Position numbers and translations under genes: made by a program
Assembly: GCA_021787985.1 (NCBI GenBank)
Contig: JAJYLG010000009.1
Span: 141-64,140, forward strand
Length of the DNA stretch: 64,000 nt
Source: Chloroflexota bacterium
GTDB taxonomy: Bacteria > Chloroflexota > Dehalococcoidia > DSGV01
Reading direction: 5' to 3'
Shown here: positions 13,251 to 24,923 of the stretch, in pieces
Layout of the letters: every line of letters starts with the position of its first letter
Numbering within the stretch: the stretch's first letter is position 1
Notes under the pieces: model-generated
What the model was told of the DNA's origin: nothing
Databases searched by the model: none
Seen by the model: only the letters and a program-made list of their open reading frames with translations

Positions 13251-14273
13251 GTGCCGACCTGGGGCGAGATCCTCGCTGAGCTGAATGACCCGGCGAACCG
13301 CCTCCCGAACGGGACGCCGGACTTTGACCGTGTCCGGCGAAAGTACCTCGTCCATCTGCACGAGTTGACCCGACGACCGACGATCATCTACTACACCGAC
13401 TGGTTCGGCAAAGGCGGCCCAGCATCGTCGATCACCCTTGAGGACATGCAGGGGATGATGGAAGTCTGCAAGGACCTTCGTGGTCCCAACCTCGACATCC
13501 TCTTGCACAGCCCCGGCGGCAGTCCGGAGGCCACGGCCAGCCTGGTCCGCTACCTTCGCACGAAGTTCTCCCATATCCGCGCGTTCGTCCCTCTGGCCGC
13601 CATGTCCGCGGCGACGATGTGGGCGTTGGCTGGTGACGTGATCGTGATGGGCAAGCACTCGCAGCTTGGCCCGATCGACCCGCAGATGGTGGCCGGCGCC
13701 TGGACGGCACCGGCGCGGGCAATCCTACGACAGTTCGAGCAAGCGAAGGAGGAGTGCAAGGACCCCTCCCTTCTGGGGGCGTGGATGCCCATCCTCCAGC
13801 AGTACGGGCCAGCACTCATCCAGCAGTGCGAGGCCGCCGAGGCACTCGCCGTCCGCCTGGTCCGCGAGTGGCTTGAGCAGTACATGTTTGCCAGCGCACC
13901 GGACGCTGCCGCGAAGGCTGAAGCTGTGGCGGGGTACTTCGCCGACTACGAGGAGCACCGGTCACACTCGCTCGGCATCGACCGCGAACAGGCCCGCAGC
14001 AAGGGGGTGCGGATCGAGGATCTGGAGGCAAGTCAGGATCTACAGGACGCCGTGCTCAGCGTGCATCACGCCACCATGCACACGCTGCAAGGCCCCGCGG
14101 TCAAGATCATGGAGAACCATCTCGGCCGCACGTTCGCGAAGCTGACCCAGCAACTTGTCGTCCAGATGCCGATGACGGGGCCGGGTCAGGTCGGCACGTT
14201 GCCGCCGGGCATGCCCGGGCTCGGTCCGCTTGGGGTGCATGGTTCAGGACCTCCTCCCTTGGGTCAACCGTAG
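13251..14273 (+). CDS. SDH-family (serine dehydrogenase proteinase, S49/ClpP-fold) peptidase, soluble, with Pro/Gly-rich C-terminal tail
   Basis: LHSPGGSPEA and FVPLAAMSAATMWALAGDVIVMGKHSQLGPIDPQM parallel the LHTPGG and VLGPVDPQL motifs of the membrane-bound paralog at 19903..20763. No N-terminal TM. GTG start. Confidence 0.75.
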   Translation: MPTWGEILAELNDPANRLPNGTPDFDRVRRKYLVHLHELTRRPTIIYYTDWFGKGGPASSITLEDMQGMMEVCKDLRGPNLDILLHSPGGSPEATASLVRYLRTKFSHIRAFVPLAAMSAATMWALAGDVIVMGKHSQLGPIDPQMVAGAWTAPARAILRQFEQAKEECKDPSLLGAWMPILQQYGPALIQQCEAAEALAVRLVREWLEQYMFASAPDAAAKAEAVAGYFADYEEHRSHSLGIDREQARSKGVRIEDLEASQDLQDAVLSVHHATMHTLQGPAVKIMENHLGRTFAKLTQQLVVQMPMTGPGQVGTLPPGMPGLGPLGVHGSGPPPLGQP

Positions 14274-16360: not shown

Positions 16361-18958
<2,598 letters not shown>

Positions 18959-19100
18959 GGCGGTACCCCTGGAGTGGCTCCAATCACAGTTTCGCGCACC
19001 TGTCGCCGCTTCCGGTACGGCTCGCGGAAGGCGGGTCGCCTGCGCGTCGCACGCGGGGAGGTCGCTCGTCGTGGCGGAGCGGCATCACGCGGACGAGGAT

Positions 19101-19775
19101 TCACGCGCCTTCCTTCGTGCCGGCGAGCCCGGCCTCCTCGCGCGTGAGCCGCCGCGCGGTGTCCGCCAACCAACCCTGCAGCGACATGTTCGCCGGCCGC
19201 CGGGCCAGCGCCTCGAAGCAGGTCGCGAGCGTGCGGGTCAACACGCGCTCGCCGATGCGCTCCACCCCGGAGCCAGCCGCTCCGGCGCGCTCCAGCTCCT
19301 TCCGGATCACGGCCGACACGGCCGGCAGCTCGTCCCACGTGAGCCGGTCGAAGGCGGCCCGGTCGCCGGCCAGCGCGCGGTCGAGCAGCTCGCGCTCCTC
19401 GATCAGCACGCGCTCGTCAGCGGCGCGCGCGGCGGGCGCCAGCCCGGCGCGGGTGCGCTCGTATCGGTGCTCGCCGCGCAGGCGGCCCATGTAGCGCTGG
19501 AGCTGCCGCTCCACGCCTTGCGCCGCCGCCAGCAGCGCGCCCTCCACCGACTCGGCGCTCCGCCGCGAGACGAGCGCGGAGTCGAGGACGAAGAGCCGCA
19601 GGACGGCCCGGTACTCCTCGCGGCGCGAGTGGCGAGACAGCTCCACCACGGCGTGGACGAGCTCCGGGTCCACGTGTTTGAGCTGCGATTCCATGTGGGC
19701 GAGGTGCCGCTCGACCAGGGCCTGGTATTCGGACGGCGCGTCCATGCGGGTGGTGCTGAGCTGATAGCGGAGCAT
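19101..19775 (-). CDS. Hypothetical protein (about 224 aa) between the S49 protease and clpB
   Basis: AGGAGG RBS 6 nt upstream of ATG (MLRYQLSTTRMDAPSEYQ...). Same strand and close spacing to neighbours. No recognizable domain. Confidence 0.5.
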   Translation of the reverse strand: MLRYQLSTTRMDAPSEYQALVERHLAHMESQLKHVDPELVHAVVELSRHSRREEYRAVLRLFVLDSALVSRRSAESVEGALLAAAQGVERQLQRYMGRLRGEHRYERTRAGLAPAARAADERVLIEERELLDRALAGDRAAFDRLTWDELPAVSAVIRKELERAGAAGSGVERIGERVLTRTLATCFEALARRPANMSLQGWLADTARRLTREEAGLAGTKEGA

Positions 19776-19902
19776 CGCGGTCCTCCTGGCAAGCCGCCGA
19801 AAAGCGGGTGTCCCCCCAGATGCACAGCCCACCCCTTGCCTGGTCTGTGCACCAGGAAAGGGGCGGGGGGATGGTCGAAGCGGGTTTCTCAACATCCTGC
19901 TG

Positions 19903-20763
19903 CTAGTCCTTGCCGCCCGCGGTCGGCCGGCGAGTGGGCGCTGGCGCGGGCCGGTACGGCACCGGCACGTACTCCACGGTTGGTCGACCACGGCCGGCCT
20001 GCGGGTAGAGGTTCATCAACTTGTAGACCTCCAGCGGCATGTCCGTGCTCACCGGCAGGCCGAGCTGCTGGGCCTCCTCCACCTTGATCGGATAGTCGTG
20101 CGTCCAGATGCCGGTGGATAGCGTCTCGGCAAGCTTCTCGGCTGCCTCCGGTGGCATGCGGTCGGTGAGCAGCTCGGCCACCATGGTGCGCACCTGGTTG
20201 ATCGCCTTGCGCGCCACGTCCGCGAGGATGAGCGTTTCGTCGTCCACCTTGTCCACGTCCTTCTGCTCGACGACGCGGACGATGGAGGTGGCGGGGAAGT
20301 TGCCGAGCTGGGGGTCGACCGGGCCGAGGACGGCGTTCTCGTCCATGACGATCTGGTCGGCGGCGAGCGCGACCAGCATTCCGCCGCTCATGGCGTAGTG
20401 GGGCACGAAGACGGTCACCGGCGCGCGGCGTCGCTGCAGGGCGTGCGCGATCTGCTCGGCCGCGATCACCAAGCCGCCGGGCGTGTGCAGCACCAGGTCG
20501 ACCGGCACGTCGGGGTCGGTGAGCTTGATGGCGCGCAGCACCTCCTCCGAGTCGTCCATGTCGATGTAACGGACGATGGGGAAGCCCAGCAAGGCCATCG
20601 TCTCCTGGCGGTGGATCAGCGTGATCACGCGGCTCCTGCGCTTCTTCTCCAGGTCATGGATGAGCCGCATCCGCGCGGCGCGCAGCATTCGTTGCCGCAG
20701 CAGCGGCTGGATCGTGACCAGGATGAGGAAGACCCAGAACAGGTCGAGGATCGAGAACGTCAT
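19903..20763 (-). CDS. SDH-family S49/ClpP-fold serine protease, membrane-anchored
   Basis: N-terminal TM (ILDLFWVFLILVTIQPLL); LVLHTPGGLVIAAEQIAHAL; FVPHYAMSGGMLVALAADQIVM; VLGPVDPQLG. Confidence 0.8.
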   Translation of the reverse strand: MTFSILDLFWVFLILVTIQPLLRQRMLRAARMRLIHDLEKKRRSRVITLIHRQETMALLGFPIVRYIDMDDSEEVLRAIKLTDPDVPVDLVLHTPGGLVIAAEQIAHALQRRRAPVTVFVPHYAMSGGMLVALAADQIVMDENAVLGPVDPQLGNFPATSIVRVVEQKDVDKVDDETLILADVARKAINQVRTMVAELLTDRMPPEAAEKLAETLSTGIWTHDYPIKVEEAQQLGLPVSTDMPLEVYKLMNLYPQAGRGRPTVEYVPVPYRPAPAPTRRPTAGGKD

Positions 20764-20784
20764 TACTCTCCCTCCAATGCGCCG

Positions 20785-21486
20785 TCACCAAGGCCAGTGC
20801 TCGTCGAGGTGGAAGTCCCCGTACGGCCGCAAGCGGATGAACACCGGCACCAGCACCGCCCCCGTGACGAAGCCGCCCACGTGCGCCCAGAATGCCACCC
20901 CGCCCGAGGCCTCGGCCGGCAGATTGGCGACGACCGTCGCCACGCCGTTCCAGAGCTGGCTCAGGAACCAGAATCCGATATACACGAGCGCCGGGATTTC
21001 GATGATCCACGGGAAAAAGAAGATGGGCACCAGCGTGATCACGTGCGACCGCGGGAACAGCAGCAGATAGGCGGCCATGACGCCGCTGATGGCGCCGCTC
21101 GCCCCGATGGTCGGCAGGGTGCTGCCGGTGTTCGCCGCGATGTGCGAAAAGTTCGCCGCGACGCCGCAGAGCAGGTAAAAGAGCGCGTAGCCGGCATGCC
21201 CGAGCCGGTCCTCCACGTTGTCGCCGAAGATGTACAGCGCCAGCATGTTCCCGATGATGTGCACCCAGCCAGCGTGAATGAAGAGCGCAGCGAAGAGCGT
21301 AGCGACCTGGCCCAGGTCCGTGTGGTCGAGGAAGCGCGCCGGCACGACGCCCAGCCGCTCGATTGTGGCGACCGCCCCGCTGCCCCGCGACAGCTCGACT
21401 CCGAACACGGCCGCGTTCGCGAGGATCAGGGCGGTGTTCACCCAGGGGAACGAACGCGCACGGACCGTGTCCTTGAGCGGGATCAC
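20785..21486 (-). CDS. Rhomboid-family intramembrane serine protease
   Basis: 6-7 TM. GASGAISGV catalytic Ser motif and AHVGGFVTG catalytic His. 233 aa. Confidence 0.85.
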   Translation of the reverse strand: MIPLKDTVRARSFPWVNTALILANAAVFGVELSRGSGAVATIERLGVVPARFLDHTDLGQVATLFAALFIHAGWVHIIGNMLALYIFGDNVEDRLGHAGYALFYLLCGVAANFSHIAANTGSTLPTIGASGAISGVMAAYLLLFPRSHVITLVPIFFFPWIIEIPALVYIGFWFLSQLWNGVATVVANLPAEASGGVAFWAHVGGFVTGAVLVPVFIRLRPYGDFHLDEHWPW

Positions 21487-21506
21487 CGGCCGTCAATCCA
21501 CGCCCG

Positions 21507-22883
21507 TCAGAAGCGGGTCAGGGCGCCCACGTGCCCGTACTCCGCCAGCCGAGCGCTGGCGTCTCCGCGAACGATGTCCAGCTCGGCGCCCTGCTCGAAG
21601 GCCCGGTCGATGAGCCGCCCGACCACATCGTCGCGTGCGACCAGCGCGGCGCCGCACAGACGACACGCGCCGCTGGCCACGGCGGTGAGGTGGCCGCAGT
21701 TGGGGCACTCCCATCCGTGATCCTCGTAGTTGGCGTTCACGATCAGCAGCATGAGTCGTTTCTCGCCGGCGGCGGCAAGCGTGTCCTCCCGGCCGCGCAC
21801 GCCGTTGGCGCCCTTGAGCGCGGCCGTGGTCACACGCTCGACGCGATCCGCCTCGACCTGCCGCTCCACGCGCTGCGCATGCTCGGTAACGAGCTGCAGC
21901 ATGCGGTCGGGCGGCGTGTCGACATCGGTGGCGATCTGGCCGCGCAACGCGTCTTGCAGTCGCGCGCTCAAGTGTGGCCGCAGCTCGGCCAGCGCCTCGC
22001 TGGGACCGCCGATGAGCAGATGGCGACAGGCGGCCTGCTCGAACAGCCGGTCGGCCGTCTCCACGGCGCGCTTCGCGTGCCAGAGGACGTGGGTCTCATG
22101 ATGGCGCTGGCGGCTCTCACCCTCGACCGACCAGCCTCCCGCCCTCGGTCGCGGGACGACCTCGTCGAGGAAAGCGCTGTAGTCCTCGATCTCGCCCATG
22201 AAGACGACGTAGATGCGCGCCTCGCGCTTGTCGAGCAGCAGCACCAGGTAGCGCTCGAACTCCTCGACGAGCACGGCCAGCGGGCGGATGAAGGGCCGGT
22301 CGGCGAATACGGCCTGGTCGCGCACGGGCACCGGCAGGCGAAACGCCCGCCACAGCCCCAGGCCCGGGCTGCTGATGATGGCGAGGCCGCGGCCGGTCCC
22401 GTCGTAGACGGTCTCCATCCAGCGCTCGACGCCCTCGGCCGCCGCTCGCGCGGCCGCGACCTTCCGGTCGGCGCGCGCCTCGATATCGCGCAGCGCTTGG
22501 CCGAGCATGGAGTGCAGCGCGTGGCGCGGCGTGTCGTAGTCGCGCCGCGTGGGCGAGAGATCGAGGTACACGCTCAGCACGGGCGACGACTCCGAGTGCA
22601 GGCCGCGCAAGTCGTCCAGCAGATCGGGCGTCGCCAGGTCGTAGCGCTTCGTGGGCACGACCTTCAGGCGTCGCAGTAGCTCTACCAGACGGTCGGCGGG
22701 CATCTGCTCCACGCCCTCGCGAGGGACGCGGCGAACGGCAGCGGTGACGCTCACGAGCTGCCTCACGCGCGTGGCGCACTCCAGGCAGTTGCGCGCGTGC
22801 GCGCTGACGCGGTCATACGTGGCCGGGTCGAGGTGCTTATCGACGAAGTCATCCAGCAGGGCGAATGCCTGGGCATGGTCCAT
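21507..22883 (-). CDS. Anti-sigma factor: N-terminal zf-HC2 anti-sigma domain fused to eRF1/Pelota-like (baeRF-type) domains 2 and 3 with GGQ replaced by GGW and a Zn-ribbon insert; no TM segment
   Basis: HARNCLEC (H-x3-C-x2-C) zf-HC2. Central region VVPRPRAGGWS...RQRHHETHVLWHAKRAVETADRLFEQAACRHLLIGGPSEALAEL aligns to eRF1 domain 2 (LPKKHGRGGQS...RKVAETAVQLF...LAGSADFKTEL). C-terminal EDTLAAAGEKRLMLLIV aligns to eRF1 domain 3 (EDTLKALEMGAVEILIV). CPNCG...CRLCG Zn ribbon. Confidence 0.65.
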   Translation of the reverse strand: MDHAQAFALLDDFVDKHLDPATYDRVSAHARNCLECATRVRQLVSVTAAVRRVPREGVEQMPADRLVELLRRLKVVPTKRYDLATPDLLDDLRGLHSESSPVLSVYLDLSPTRRDYDTPRHALHSMLGQALRDIEARADRKVAAARAAAEGVERWMETVYDGTGRGLAIISSPGLGLWRAFRLPVPVRDQAVFADRPFIRPLAVLVEEFERYLVLLLDKREARIYVVFMGEIEDYSAFLDEVVPRPRAGGWSVEGESRQRHHETHVLWHAKRAVETADRLFEQAACRHLLIGGPSEALAELRPHLSARLQDALRGQIATDVDTPPDRMLQLVTEHAQRVERQVEADRVERVTTAALKGANGVRGREDTLAAAGEKRLMLLIVNANYEDHGWECPNCGHLTAVASGACRLCGAALVARDDVVGRLIDRAFEQGAELDIVRGDASARLAEYGHVGALTRF

Positions 22884-22909
22884 GGCTTGCCTCCCGAGGC
22901 GAATCCGGA

Positions 22910-23578
22910 TCAGCGAACGCGAGTGCGTTCGCCGAAGAGGAGCTGGCGAAGGTGCTCGCGGGCGCCGCGGTAGAGGCGTCGTATCTCGTCCGGTCCCTGG
23001 CCGAAGATACGGGCGACTTCGCCGAGCGGGACGCGTTCGATGGCGACCAGCGTGAAGACACGGCGCTCGAGGCCGGGAAGCAGGTGAACGATGCGCTCGT
23101 ACTCGTCGGCGAGCGATGCGGCCTCGGTCGCCTCCGCCTCGAGCGGCGGCGGGGGTGGCGGCTCATCGCTGGAGGCGTAGGCGGGCAGGAAGTACGCCCA
23201 GAACGGACGGCCGTCGGGCGTCTCGCCCTCGCCGGACGGCGGCTGCAGGCCGCGCTCGCGACGGCCGCGGCGGACCTCGCGGTCCACCTGCTTGAGGACG
23301 AGGTGTCGTAGCCAGCCCCGCAGCGTGGCGCCCTCGGGCATGTGGTTCAGGTGGAGCATGGCCAGCAGCACCGCGTCATTCACCAGGTCGGCGGGCTCGA
23401 CCTCACCGGGGCCGAGATCGCCGAGCCGCTGGTGGGCGTCCAGCTCACGGGCGGCGAAGCGGTAGAGCGAATCAAGCTGAGGCTGGATCAGGCGCTCGAA
23501 CGCCTCGCGGTCTCCGGCGCGGGCGTCGTGCAGCAGGTGGAGGTCGTCAGCAGAGTGGAGCGCCCGGCGAGCGGCCAT
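22910..23578 (-). CDS. ECF-type RNA polymerase sigma factor (sigma-70 regions 2 and 4) with an unusually long Pro-rich linker
   Basis: Region 2 DREAFERLIQPQLDSLYRFAAR...ADLVNDAVL; region 4 LPGLERRVFTLVAIERVPLGEVARIFGQGPDEIRRLYRGAREHL. Insert PSGEGETPDGRPFWAYFLPAYASSDEPPPPPP between them. Confidence 0.8.
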   Translation of the reverse strand: MAARRALHSADDLHLLHDARAGDREAFERLIQPQLDSLYRFAARELDAHQRLGDLGPGEVEPADLVNDAVLLAMLHLNHMPEGATLRGWLRHLVLKQVDREVRRGRRERGLQPPSGEGETPDGRPFWAYFLPAYASSDEPPPPPPLEAEATEAASLADEYERIVHLLPGLERRVFTLVAIERVPLGEVARIFGQGPDEIRRLYRGAREHLRQLLFGERTRVR

Positions 23579-23744
23579 GTCAGTCCTCCAGTGGCGCGCC
23601 GGCCTTCGCCATGCTCAGCATGACGCGTTTACGTTAGAATTGTCAAGATAACGTACTGTTGTGGCGAGGTTGAATCGCTGGCCGCGAGCCCGCAGAACGA
23701 CCGACCCGGCTGGCGTGCTCTCCGATGGGCGACGCTCCGGTGGA

Positions 23745-24923
23745 CTAGCCGCGCGGCAGCCCGAGTCCCCGCATCGCGACGATGCCCCGCTGGATCTCGC
23801 TCGTGCCGCCGGCGATCGTCGCCGAGACGGTGGCGAGGTAGTTGTACGCCATGCGGCCGCCGATGCGGTGGTGGGCACTGGCGCCCTCCAGCGGGCCGTA
23901 GAGGCCGAGGAGCTGCACGCCGATGAGCGCCACGCGCTGGGCGAGCTCAGTGCTGTAGAGCTTGGCCGCCGACGCCTCGTGGTTCGGCACCAGGCCGCGC
24001 ATCTGCATCGAGACCACGCGGTAGGAGAGCATCCGGCCGACCTCGATCTCGATCGCCGCCTCGGCGAGTCGAGCGCGTACCTCCGGCCGGCGCGCCAGCT
24101 CGGGTCGGTGCTCACGGGCGTCCTCGATCAGGTCCTCGAACATCCGCCGAGCGTTGCTCGCGCCGGCGATGCTCGATCGCTCGAAGTCGAGCGAAAGCGC
24201 CAGGTGGTACCAGCCGCGGTTCAGCTCGCCCACCAGGCTCTTCTTGGAGATGCGAACGTCCTCGAAGAAGACCTGATTGAAGCTGTGGTCGTTCGCCATG
24301 TTGATCAGCGGCTGGATCGTGATCCCCGGCGCGCGCATGTCGTCGAGGATGAACATCGAGATGCCCCGGTGCTTGGGGGCGCCGGGATCGGTTCGCGCGG
24401 CGAGCCAGCCCTTGTTGGAGTGATGCGCGCCCGAGGTCCAGATCTTCTGGCCGTTGATGACCCATTCGTCGCCGTCGAGGACGGCGCGCGTCTGCAGCGC
24501 GGCCAGGTCAGAGCCCGCGCCCGGCTCGGAGTAGAGGGTGCACCAGACGTCGTCGGCGCCGGTGATGCGGGGGAGGTACTCCTGCTTCTGCTCTTCGGTA
24601 CCCAGGTGGATCAGGGCGGGGCCGACCCAGGCGACACCCATGGAGAAGGCCCCCGGCACGCGCCGGTACGCCACCTCCTCGTTGAAGAGCATCTGCTGCA
24701 TGTAGGTGGCGCCCAGCCCGCCGTACTCTTTCGGCCAGGCCATCGCCAGCCAGCCCCGTGTCGCGAGCCTGCGCGAGAACTCGCGCGACATCGCGAACGC
24801 TTCCGCCGTCCCGAAACCGTACTTGTCATCGACTCGCTGCCACTCGGCGGGCAGCTCCTCGTCGAAGAACGTACGCAGCTCGGACAGGAAGGCCTCGTCC
24901 TCGGCGGTCAGGCGAAAGTCCAC
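23745..24923 (-). CDS. Acyl-CoA dehydrogenase
   Basis: 392 aa; ACAD N, middle and C domains (GWLAMAWPKEYGG...; YSEPGAGSDLAALQTRA; C-terminal helical domain). Confidence 0.85.
   Translation of the reverse strand: MDFRLTAEDEAFLSELRTFFDEELPAEWQRVDDKYGFGTAEAFAMSREFSRRLATRGWLAMAWPKEYGGLGATYMQQMLFNEEVAYRRVPGAFSMGVAWVGPALIHLGTEEQKQEYLPRITGADDVWCTLYSEPGAGSDLAALQTRAVLDGDEWVINGQKIWTSGAHHSNKGWLAARTDPGAPKHRGISMFILDDMRAPGITIQPLINMANDHSFNQVFFEDVRISKKSLVGELNRGWYHLALSLDFERSSIAGASNARRMFEDLIEDAREHRPELARRPEVRARLAEAAIEIEVGRMLSYRVVSMQMRGLVPNHEASAAKLYSTELAQRVALIGVQLLGLYGPLEGASAHHRIGGRMAYNYLATVSATIAGGTSEIQRGIVAMRGLGLPRG

Follow-up and report, generated by a model that had tools for sequence, protein, structure and literature searches.

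The window discussed here, by which we mean the whole stretch of 64,000 nucleotides (nt) from a Chloroflexota bacterium, carries on its reverse strand a compact gene pair: an ECF-type sigma factor and, 26 nt downstream on the same strand, a soluble protein of 458 amino acids (aa). In the latter, which we call the fusion, a predicted anti-sigma domain precedes a three-domain body related to the hibernation factor Balon and, more remotely, to eukaryotic and archaeal release factors eRF1 and aRF1. Table 1 lists the features of this locus; designations such as L001 and P0001 stand, respectively, for loci and proteins that were found by homology search.

The fused gene and its Balon-like body

The fusion gene begins with an ATG codon, and GGGAGG is found 7 nt to the 5' side of it. 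An original prediction, made from the DNA alone, had placed an open reading frame (ORF) here and cited several peptides from it, and both the coordinates and every peptide are confirmed by the translation (HARNCLEC, LDEVVPRPRAGGWS, AKRAVETADRLFEQA...LLIGGPSEALAEL and EDTLAAAGEKRLMLLIV). It had also described the partner of the ECF sigma factor as lacking a transmembrane segment; a search of the fusion likewise reveals none, the highest Kyte-Doolittle mean over 19 residues being 1.35. The concern that two separate genes might have been joined by a frameshift or an assembly error can be put aside, because the same architecture is found in many independent assemblies, at 30-45% identity.

Table 1. 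Features of the sigma-fusion locus and of the adjoining genes, in window coordinates
Feature	Position	Strand	Evidence or remark
ClpB disaggregase, next gene after the HPF chimera	16361..18958	-	Translation (AAA+ ClpB)
HPF (S30AE) with ECF sigma2-like domain, without sigma4, 224 aa	19101..19775	-	Pfam, pairwise comparison, hhalign
ClpP-like SDH-type serine protease	19903..20763	-	Pfam SDH_protease, E 2e-119
Rhomboid protease, 20 nt downstream of the fusion, probably co-transcribed	20785..21486	-	Pfam Rhomboid, E 6.6e-31
Fusion of anti-sigma domain and Balon-like body (baeRF family 10), soluble, 458 aa	21507..22883	-	Translation, Pfam/NCBIfam, PDB profile, AF2, Foldseek
C-terminal domain (Pelota/eRF1_3-like), residues ~341-458; EF-Tu-facing in Balon	21510..21863	-	Profile and Foldseek
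Zinc ribbon CxxC...CxxC (C393, C396, C407, C410)	21654..21707	-	Conserved in nearly the whole family
Middle domain (RNase H-fold, GGQ-loop), residues ~196-340	21864..22298	-	Pfam baeRF_family10 over 197-334
G249-G250-W251, positional equivalent of eRF1 GGQ	22131..22139	-	HMMER alignment; loop 239-259 modelled with low confidence
Balon/aeRF1 N domain, residues ~88-195, with family hallmark PVLSVYLDLSP	22299..22622	-	Start of profile alignment to Msmeg1130 and Rv2629
Predicted N-terminal class-I anti-sigma domain, residues 1-75	22659..22883	-	zf-HC2, N-terminal profile, AF2/Foldseek
ZAS motif H29-x3-C33-x2-C36 (HARNCLEC)	22776..22799	-	Read from the sequence; H3 likely fourth ligand
ECF-type sigma factor, 222 aa, sigma2 and sigma4, lineage-specific insert in sigma2	22910..23578	-	TIGR02937, Pfam, orthologues
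Intergenic stretch preceding the sigma gene, with the presumed promoter	23579..23744	-

Several independent comparisons define the body. Pfam family baeRF_family10 (PF18854) matches residues 197-334 (E 3.2e-27, 96 bits, cut-off 27.1), with weaker matches to acVLRF1, baeRF_family12 and Host_attach. When a profile built from 16 homologues is searched against PDB sequences, it retrieves the chains of three Balons (Msmeg1130, E 2.5e-31; Rv2629, 4e-16; P. urativorans Balon, 3e-6) as well as those of aRF1 (3e-14), eRF1 (5e-10) and Pelota (1.5e-4). The AlphaFold2 (AF2) model of the fusion has a mean pLDDT of 80.6, falling below 50 only at the loop 239-259. Foldseek aligns this model with ribosome-bound Balon Msmeg1130 (8v9l_z) over 388 columns that span all three domains (E 3.6e-23, TM 0.78); aRF1 and eRF1 come next, and Pelota/Dom34 is far behind (Pelota E 1e-8 to 1e-3, TM 0.2-0.35). 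Thus, the eRF1-like C-terminal body of the original prediction is borne out by significant matches in all three types of comparison and extends to a complete three-domain aeRF1 fold, while the likeness to a Pelota/Dom34 probe has to be given up in favor of the far closer Msmeg1130 and Rv2629. The eRF1/aRF1 model TIGR03676 gives 29.2 bits against a cut-off of 234.7, and no NIKS motif is seen in the fusion sequence. By these sequence and fold comparisons, the body is a relative of Balon within baeRF-1 family 10, but not an equivalog.

Msmeg1130 and Rv2629 attach to the A site of the ribosome and inhibit translation, and Balon sits with EF-Tu in the A site of ribosomes that are idle or stressed (PMC10901736). 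By analogy, the expected activity of the fusion body is A-site occupation with EF-Tu, not the action of a Dom34-type rescue probe. L92, P101, S104, Y106, L107 and P111 are invariant N-domain residues in the alignment of homologues. Within the fused clade the mean column identity of the body is 64%, and family-invariant positions are kept in all three domains, which argues that the predicted ribosome-binding function has been kept as well.

HMMER places GGW of the fusion (RAGGWS) directly on GGQ of eRF1 (PKKHGRGGQS) and aRF1 (PGKQRKGGQS), so that W251 takes the position of the catalytic Gln, as had been predicted. The replacement is not peculiar to the fusion, however: the typical loop in 165 compared relatives is [K/H/D]QGGWSQxR[Y/F]QRHH, and AGW is found at this position in Rv2629 Balon, so that GGW is best seen as a family trait. 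What does set the window protein apart is that neither Gln beside GGW has survived (A248 and V253 stand in their place in RAGGWSV). In most other extension-bearing members the GG motif is gone entirely (PPATGxxVEKTGHRH), and P0024, also fused, retains the family-typical QGGWSQ. We also observed a true GGQ (KAGGQQAEK) in two close relatives, the complete fused member P0019 (L017, 1454-2857) and P0075, a 197-aa fragment with the N-terminus missing. With GGQ, GGW and GG-less loops all present in one clade, the catalytic loop appears to be evolving freely there.

These loops bear on the possibility that the protein is an active peptidyl-tRNA hydrolase or ribosome-rescue factor, whose N-terminal helices are not an anti-sigma domain at all. 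Burroughs and Aravind noted the conserved Gln of baeRF family 10 and suggested possible catalysis (PMC6514570); these conserved residues are the very ones that flank GGW. The frequent QGGWSQ, the true GGQ of P0019 and the matches to acVLRF1 speak for such an activity as well. Yet both flanking Gln residues are missing from the window fusion, the GG motif is absent from most of the fused clade, and the nearest relatives of solved structure are hibernation factors that do not catalyze. The evidence for the anti-sigma domain and for the pairing with a sigma gene does not depend on the hydrolase question. We regard this explanation as very improbable. Database entries name members of the family 'peptide chain release factor subunit 1' and, for P0006 at NCBI, 'Vms1/Ankzf1 family peptidyl-tRNA hydrolase'; for the fused clade such names are probably wrong.

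The zinc ribbon in the third domain had been taken for an insertion. C393, C396, C407 and C410 are in fact conserved in almost every relative and align with the ribbon of archaeal aRF1 4af1; judged by this alignment, the ribbon is ancestral, as is the CxxC...CxxC ribbon in the account of Burroughs and Aravind (PMC6514570).

Predicted anti-sigma domain and sigma partner

The 85 residues in front of the body hold a complete set of ligands of the zinc anti-sigma (ZAS) type, H3, H29, C33 and C36, in the pattern of ChrR and RslA. A classical zf-HC2 domain had been proposed here on the strength of HARNCLEC. The motif is present, but the window protein stays just under the cut-off of the Pfam zf-HC2 model (PF13490, cut-off 22.2), scoring 17.4 bits over its full length and 21.8 bits when the N-terminus is taken alone; fused orthologues do pass it (P0017, 30.5 bits; P0019, 27.1; P0024, 33.9), and zf-HC2 matches seven of nine aligned N-terminal segments, with a best E of 1.8e-9. 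A profile of the N-termini gives weak matches to RsiW (E 0.007) and then, among others, to RslA, ChrR and DdvA, and NCBIfam reports a weak RsrA match to the fusion (E 0.096). AF2 models the isolated domain (pLDDT 67) as helices 3-14, 20-32, 34-52 and 63-73. In Foldseek its nine best matches all come from three anti-sigma entries, namely RslA (seven chains of 3hug), ChrR and RskA, led by RslA (probability 0.97, TM 0.68, 29% identity, E 0.17); none of these matches is significant on E-value alone. Taken singly, these lines are modest; with the gene context added, they amount to a solid case for a predicted anti-sigma domain.

The ZAS motif is retained in P0002, P0017, P0019 and P0024. In most orthologues (P0003-P0009, P0018, P0020 and P0102) the zinc ligands are replaced and the helices are kept. 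This distribution matters for the idea that the fusion senses redox state as a zinc anti-sigma factor like RsrA, which would free its sigma factor upon oxidation of the H/C ligands and in which the release-factor body would be a passenger effector. This idea agrees with the complete ligand set of the window protein, with its weak RsrA match, and with the location close to the pair, in L018 and L022, of genes for AhpC, glutaredoxin and thioredoxin. In most orthologues, however, the ligands are gone while the domain and the neighboring sigma gene persist, which speaks against a redox switch as the mechanism in general. Many ZAS proteins have a zinc site that is structural only, and the cases of RslA and ChrR are debated. 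A redox switch therefore strikes us as a highly improbable explanation.

Genes of class-I anti-sigma factors lie directly downstream of the genes for their cognate ECF sigma factors. For the window sigma factor, TIGR02937 (sigma70-ECF) yields 39 bits (cut-off 42.9) and Pfam Sigma70_ECF 19.2 bits (cut-off 21.1), and the r4 and r4_2 matches are weak too. Its orthologues are 28-42% identical over full-length alignments, and the one in L008 passes Pfam Sigma70_r2 and r4_2. The original prediction had called for a search for homologues of the same architecture beside ECF sigma genes. An orthologous sigma gene is directly upstream in eight of the nine long-extension loci with readable upstream DNA (the window, L001, L004, L008, L010, L011, L015 and L018); L019 is too short to tell, and this locus is outside the count. 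The spacing between the two genes varies from the 26-nt gap of the window to overlaps of 11-14 nt. In L020, an orthologous sigma gene precedes a member, P0012, with a 36-aa extension that resembles helix 4; a hidden anti-sigma domain upstream of P0012 was ruled out, as all upstream frames hold stops or belong to the sigma gene.

A search with the full-length sigma factor found no full-length sigma gene upstream of the extension-less members at five loci, L006/7, L009, L012, L013 and L014, of which L013 and L014 hold more distant relatives. In L022, likewise extension-less, the upstream position is taken by a gene for sigma4 only. The extension and the sigma neighbor thus travel together.

This arrangement is uncommon. 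A word-indexed search returned 16 relatives of the fusion, nine of them with an N-terminal extension, and an exhaustive search of 1.84 billion cluster representatives returned 2,844 relatives. Among the best 150 clusters at 50% identity, about seven have an extension of at least 84 aa (P0001, P0017, P0018, P0019, P0020, P0024 and P0102). The fused members with named sources are from metagenome-assembled genomes of Chloroflexota (Roseiflexaceae, Chloroflexi OHK40), and the combination of fusion and upstream ECF sigma gene is found in several lineages, mostly Chloroflexi-like. Two members have additions at the other end: the fused P0018 (623 aa) has about 170 extra C-terminal residues with a weak HTH_17 match (E 0.0037), and P0008 has an acidic tail of 50 aa.

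Precomputed Pfam matches do record zf-HC2 together with baeRF_family10 on some members. Full-text literature searches turned up no account of a fusion between an anti-sigma domain and Balon, nor of what it does, in keeping with the earlier statement that no characterized anti-sigma factor of this architecture is known. The fusion is unmentioned in the baeRF survey (PMC6514570), and the main text, as one part of the ECF reclassification (Casas-Pastor et al. 2021), has no fusion, Chloroflexi, ribosome or release-factor context. What is new, as far as sequence comparison can tell, would be a type of sensor without precedent among anti-sigma factors or, just as well, a module for binding a transcription factor on a hibernation factor.

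Genomic neighborhood and a possible link from ribosomes to sigma

We propose that the two genes encode a cytoplasmic sigma/anti-sigma pair in which the anti-sigma factor is itself a hibernation factor of the Balon type and couples sigma availability to the state of the ribosomes. Its mechanism and direction we infer, and we consider the chances of the whole proposal to be evenly balanced. In growing cells, free fusion protein would hold the sigma factor between its N-terminal anti-sigma helices. Under stress or starvation, A sites would become available and the aeRF1-like body would dock there with EF-Tu, as Balon does. Since the anti-sigma domain immediately precedes the N domain, the part that enters the decoding center, binding of the ribosome and binding of sigma would be expected to compete. 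In that case the pool of ribosomes would serve as a sink that titrates the anti-sigma factor, a logic similar to that of FlgM export, and the freed sigma factor would direct transcription of stress genes and of its own operon. After the ribosomes have been saturated, or have gone back to translation and ejected the factor, the excess would recapture sigma. The sign could also be the opposite, with sigma parked on hibernating ribosomes and released at wake-up.

A link of this kind, from the ribosomes to the release of sigma, had been suggested in the original prediction; it is plausible and agrees with the conserved sigma pairing and with the stress genes in the neighborhood. The order in the window is sigma - fusion - rhomboid - SDH protease - HPF chimera - ClpB. 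Elsewhere we find BON - sigma - fusion - dnaK grpE clpB dnaJ htrA merR (L001); BON - sigma - fusion - yflT (L004); sigma - fusion in each of L008, L010 and L011; sigma - fusion (14-nt overlap) - hsp20 - doxX - ftsH - dnaJ - merR (L015); and ahpC - grx - hsp20 - hsp20 - BON - sigma - fusion (11-nt overlap) in L018. Across loci, the stress and dormancy neighbors include BON, Hsp20, DnaK-GrpE-ClpB-DnaJ, FtsH, HspR-like MerR, YflT, AhpC/Grx and the HPF chimera. Alternative sigma-70 factors have already been listed among the operon neighbors of Balon (PMC10901736).

Several points weigh against the proposed coupling. That binding of sigma and binding of the ribosome exclude each other is purely inferred. 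Functional equivalence to the characterized Balons is an extrapolation across about 20% identity, since the NCBIfam equivalog cut-offs for hibernation factors are far from reached (MSMEG_1130, 62.4 against 480 bits; Rv2629, 38.2 against 320; AOC03_06830, 28.1 against 330). Taken by itself, the anti-sigma domain of the window protein is marginal (21.8 against 22.2 bits; Foldseek E 0.17). The fused member P0019 in L017, on a contig of 3 kb, has no sigma gene directly upstream. Finally, a shared ECF-type promoter upstream of the operons or of neighboring stress genes was not found: when all pairs of 4-mers with a 15-19 nt spacer in the upstream regions of eight loci were compared with shuffled sequences, the best pair occurred in four regions, which is the usual maximum in shuffles. 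The sequence TCAAC-N15-CGTTA upstream of the window sigma gene looks like an ECF promoter by eye and is unsupported by conservation.

Another explanation is that the protein is primarily a hibernation factor and that the anti-sigma domain provides no more than stoichiometric negative feedback, the operon being driven by sigma and each new Balon molecule titrating one sigma factor, with no influence of ribosome binding on sigma binding. Autoregulated operons of a sigma and an anti-sigma factor are the rule in ECF systems, and the gene order, the translational coupling and the well-conserved body fit this scheme. It leaves unexplained, however, why an anti-sigma factor without a signal would be selected, as some input must relieve the inhibition, and the extension-less relatives do without the anti-sigma domain. 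We consider feedback alone to be unlikely, if by no means far-fetched.

The proteases and chaperones near the pair raise a further possibility, that regulated proteolysis of the fusion by Clp, FtsH, Lon or the neighboring proteases frees sigma in heat or proteotoxic stress, the Balon body serving as a degron or adaptor. In the window, the pair is accompanied by a rhomboid, an SDH-type protease and ClpB; L015 has FtsH beside it, L001 an HtrA-like protease, and L020 again rhomboid and SDH proteases. Against this, the protease neighbors are not conserved across the fused loci, and no degron has been identified. Rhomboids cleave transmembrane substrates; the fusion has no membrane segment, which argues against direct action of the rhomboid on it, and the rhomboid was thus rejected as a site-1 protease of the fusion. 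On balance, proteolytic release seems to us decidedly unlikely.

Some other observations on these neighborhoods can be recorded. The pair of rhomboid and SDH-type protease genes lies beside the sigma-Balon pair in two loci, in differing orders (window 19903-21486, reverse strand; L020, 1-818). The L020 rhomboid is 46% identical to that of the window, and a fragment of an orthologue of the SDH protease is found beside it. A second, diverged SDH-type/NfeD-like protease domain is encoded on the forward strand of the window at 13329-13781 and shares 33% identity over 159 aa with the product of 19903-20763 (tblastn E 1.4e-13). A BON-domain gene is immediately upstream of sigma in L001, L004, L011 and L018, two genes further upstream in L015, and not present directly upstream of the window sigma gene; its product is often about 635-724 aa long, with faint PRC/DUF2171 matches. 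The operon probably starts with it in the lineages of L001, L004, L011, L015 and L018. Three direct repeats, (A/C)(T/G)GTTTCG, are located just upstream of the sigma gene in L015 (4230-4312, the P0024 locus); they are not seen in other loci and may represent an operator or promoter element. A scan of window positions 18800-23800 for sigma-70 promoters and terminators gave nothing useful, and scans of the whole window with Rfam models and for tRNAs gave no matches.

The remaining neighbor of interest is the HPF chimera, encoded three genes downstream of the fusion. Pfam recognizes its Ribosomal_S30AE domain (26.5 bits, cut-off 23.7), and its C-terminal 80 aa are 32% identical to residues 11-90 of the window sigma factor (E 5e-6). 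The family of these C-terminal segments (80-90 residues) matches region 2 of the sigma group in hhalign with 96.8% probability (E 2.5e-10). Genes of the HPF type beside Balon/baeRF genes have been described by Burroughs and Aravind (PMC6514570) and in the Balon paper (PMC10901736), and the extension-less Balon genes of L006/7 indeed adjoin one; the window chimera is 41% identical to this neighbor in L006/L007. Chimera orthologues are found beside extension-less Balon genes in L006/7 and L022, and the other chimera loci have no adjoining Balon gene. A 2025 preprint reports 'SigE-HPF' chimeras, often adjacent to Balon genes (10.1101/2025.11.04.686544), so that the HPF-sigma2 chimera as such is not new.

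In L022 (2940-5416) the sigma factor appears to be split: a gene for a 127-aa, sigma4-only protein overlaps the start of the extension-less baeRF10 gene and is followed by genes for an 89-aa protein, HPF-sigma2, AhpC and glutaredoxin. The small protein that directly precedes the chimera there is conserved (89-93 aa, motif W..GYRDPPG; L006, 4600-4881; L022, 4473-4742) and has no Pfam match. In L021, L023 and the P0180 locus, too, the chimera comes after an ORF of 79-137 aa; the L021 ORF, the sole one translated, is unlike the W..GYRDPPG protein. No such small ORF stands in front of the window chimera.

That chimera and fusion are encoded close together hints that the chimera might mimic sigma and contend for the anti-sigma domain, and it may be part of the same circuit as the fusion. 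Taken further, the fusion, the ECF sigma factor and HPF-sigma2 would form a partner-switching circuit on the hibernating ribosome, in which the mimic on HPF captures the anti-sigma domain of Balon and sigma is set free. With Balon in the A site and HPF in the neighboring channel of the 30S subunit, the sigma2 mimic would come to lie beside the anti-sigma domain. The split arrangement of L022, with sigma4 only, Balon, the small protein and HPF-sigma2, would be another version of the coupling between transcription and hibernation. If such a circuit existed, the level at which the stress regulon is transcribed would be a direct readout of how many ribosomes carry both factors. We advance this scheme as a speculation that is decidedly unlikely to hold.

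Comparison with known systems

Hibernation factors and pairs of ECF sigma and anti-sigma factors are both well studied, as separate stress systems. The known inputs of anti-sigma factors are envelope signals, redox state, proteolysis and partner switching; to our knowledge, ribosome occupancy has not been described among them. A protein that is physically both would, if the coupling proposed here is true, provide a route within one polypeptide from ribosome occupancy to promoter selection. It would bear, too, on how factors of the Balon type are regulated and dosed against the ribosome pool, a question left open by the work on Balon. Small and soluble, with one sigma factor, one 458-aa protein and ribosomes as its components, the system lends itself to direct tests.

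The closest known relatives of the body are the Balons of P. urativorans and mycobacteria (Msmeg1130 and Rv2629), that is, the baeRF-1 clade. The fusion shares with them the three-domain aeRF1 fold and the hallmark of the N domain, lacks GGQ and NIKS as they do, has the (A/G)GW loop in common with Rv2629, and lies in a similar stress-operon context with a gene of the HPF/RaiA type nearby. It differs in having the 85-aa N-terminal anti-sigma domain, which the characterized Balons do not have, and in keeping the zinc ribbon that the mycobacterial proteins lost; its identity to Msmeg1130 is about 20%. Likeness to eRF1/aRF1 and Pelota/Dom34 consists in the homologous fold, the loop whose GG falls on GGQ, and the zinc ribbon of the C-domain, which matches that of aRF1. 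Trp in place of the catalytic Gln and the absence of NIKS separate the fusion from eRF1/aRF1, and the similarity is much weaker than to Balon.

From the side of transcription, the nearest relatives are the class-I zinc anti-sigma factors RslA, ChrR, RsiW and RsrA. The H-x3-C-x2-C motif with an upstream His and a gene directly downstream of an ECF sigma gene are shared with the fusion, as is, in its predicted model, the arrangement of three helices followed by a fourth. There is, however, no transmembrane or periplasmic sensor, no cupin and no other small-ligand domain; the place of the C-terminal 'sensor' is taken by a mimic of a translation factor. The PhyR-NepR-EcfG and FlgM-sigma28 systems are similar in logic only, in that the availability of a soluble anti-sigma factor is set by a competing partner or a sink. 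By analogy, the HPF chimera with its sigma2-like part resembles a sigma mimic in the manner of the sigma-like domain of PhyR. The fusion system has neither the receiver domain of the former system nor the secretion apparatus of the latter, and in their stead the proposed competitor would be the ribosome.

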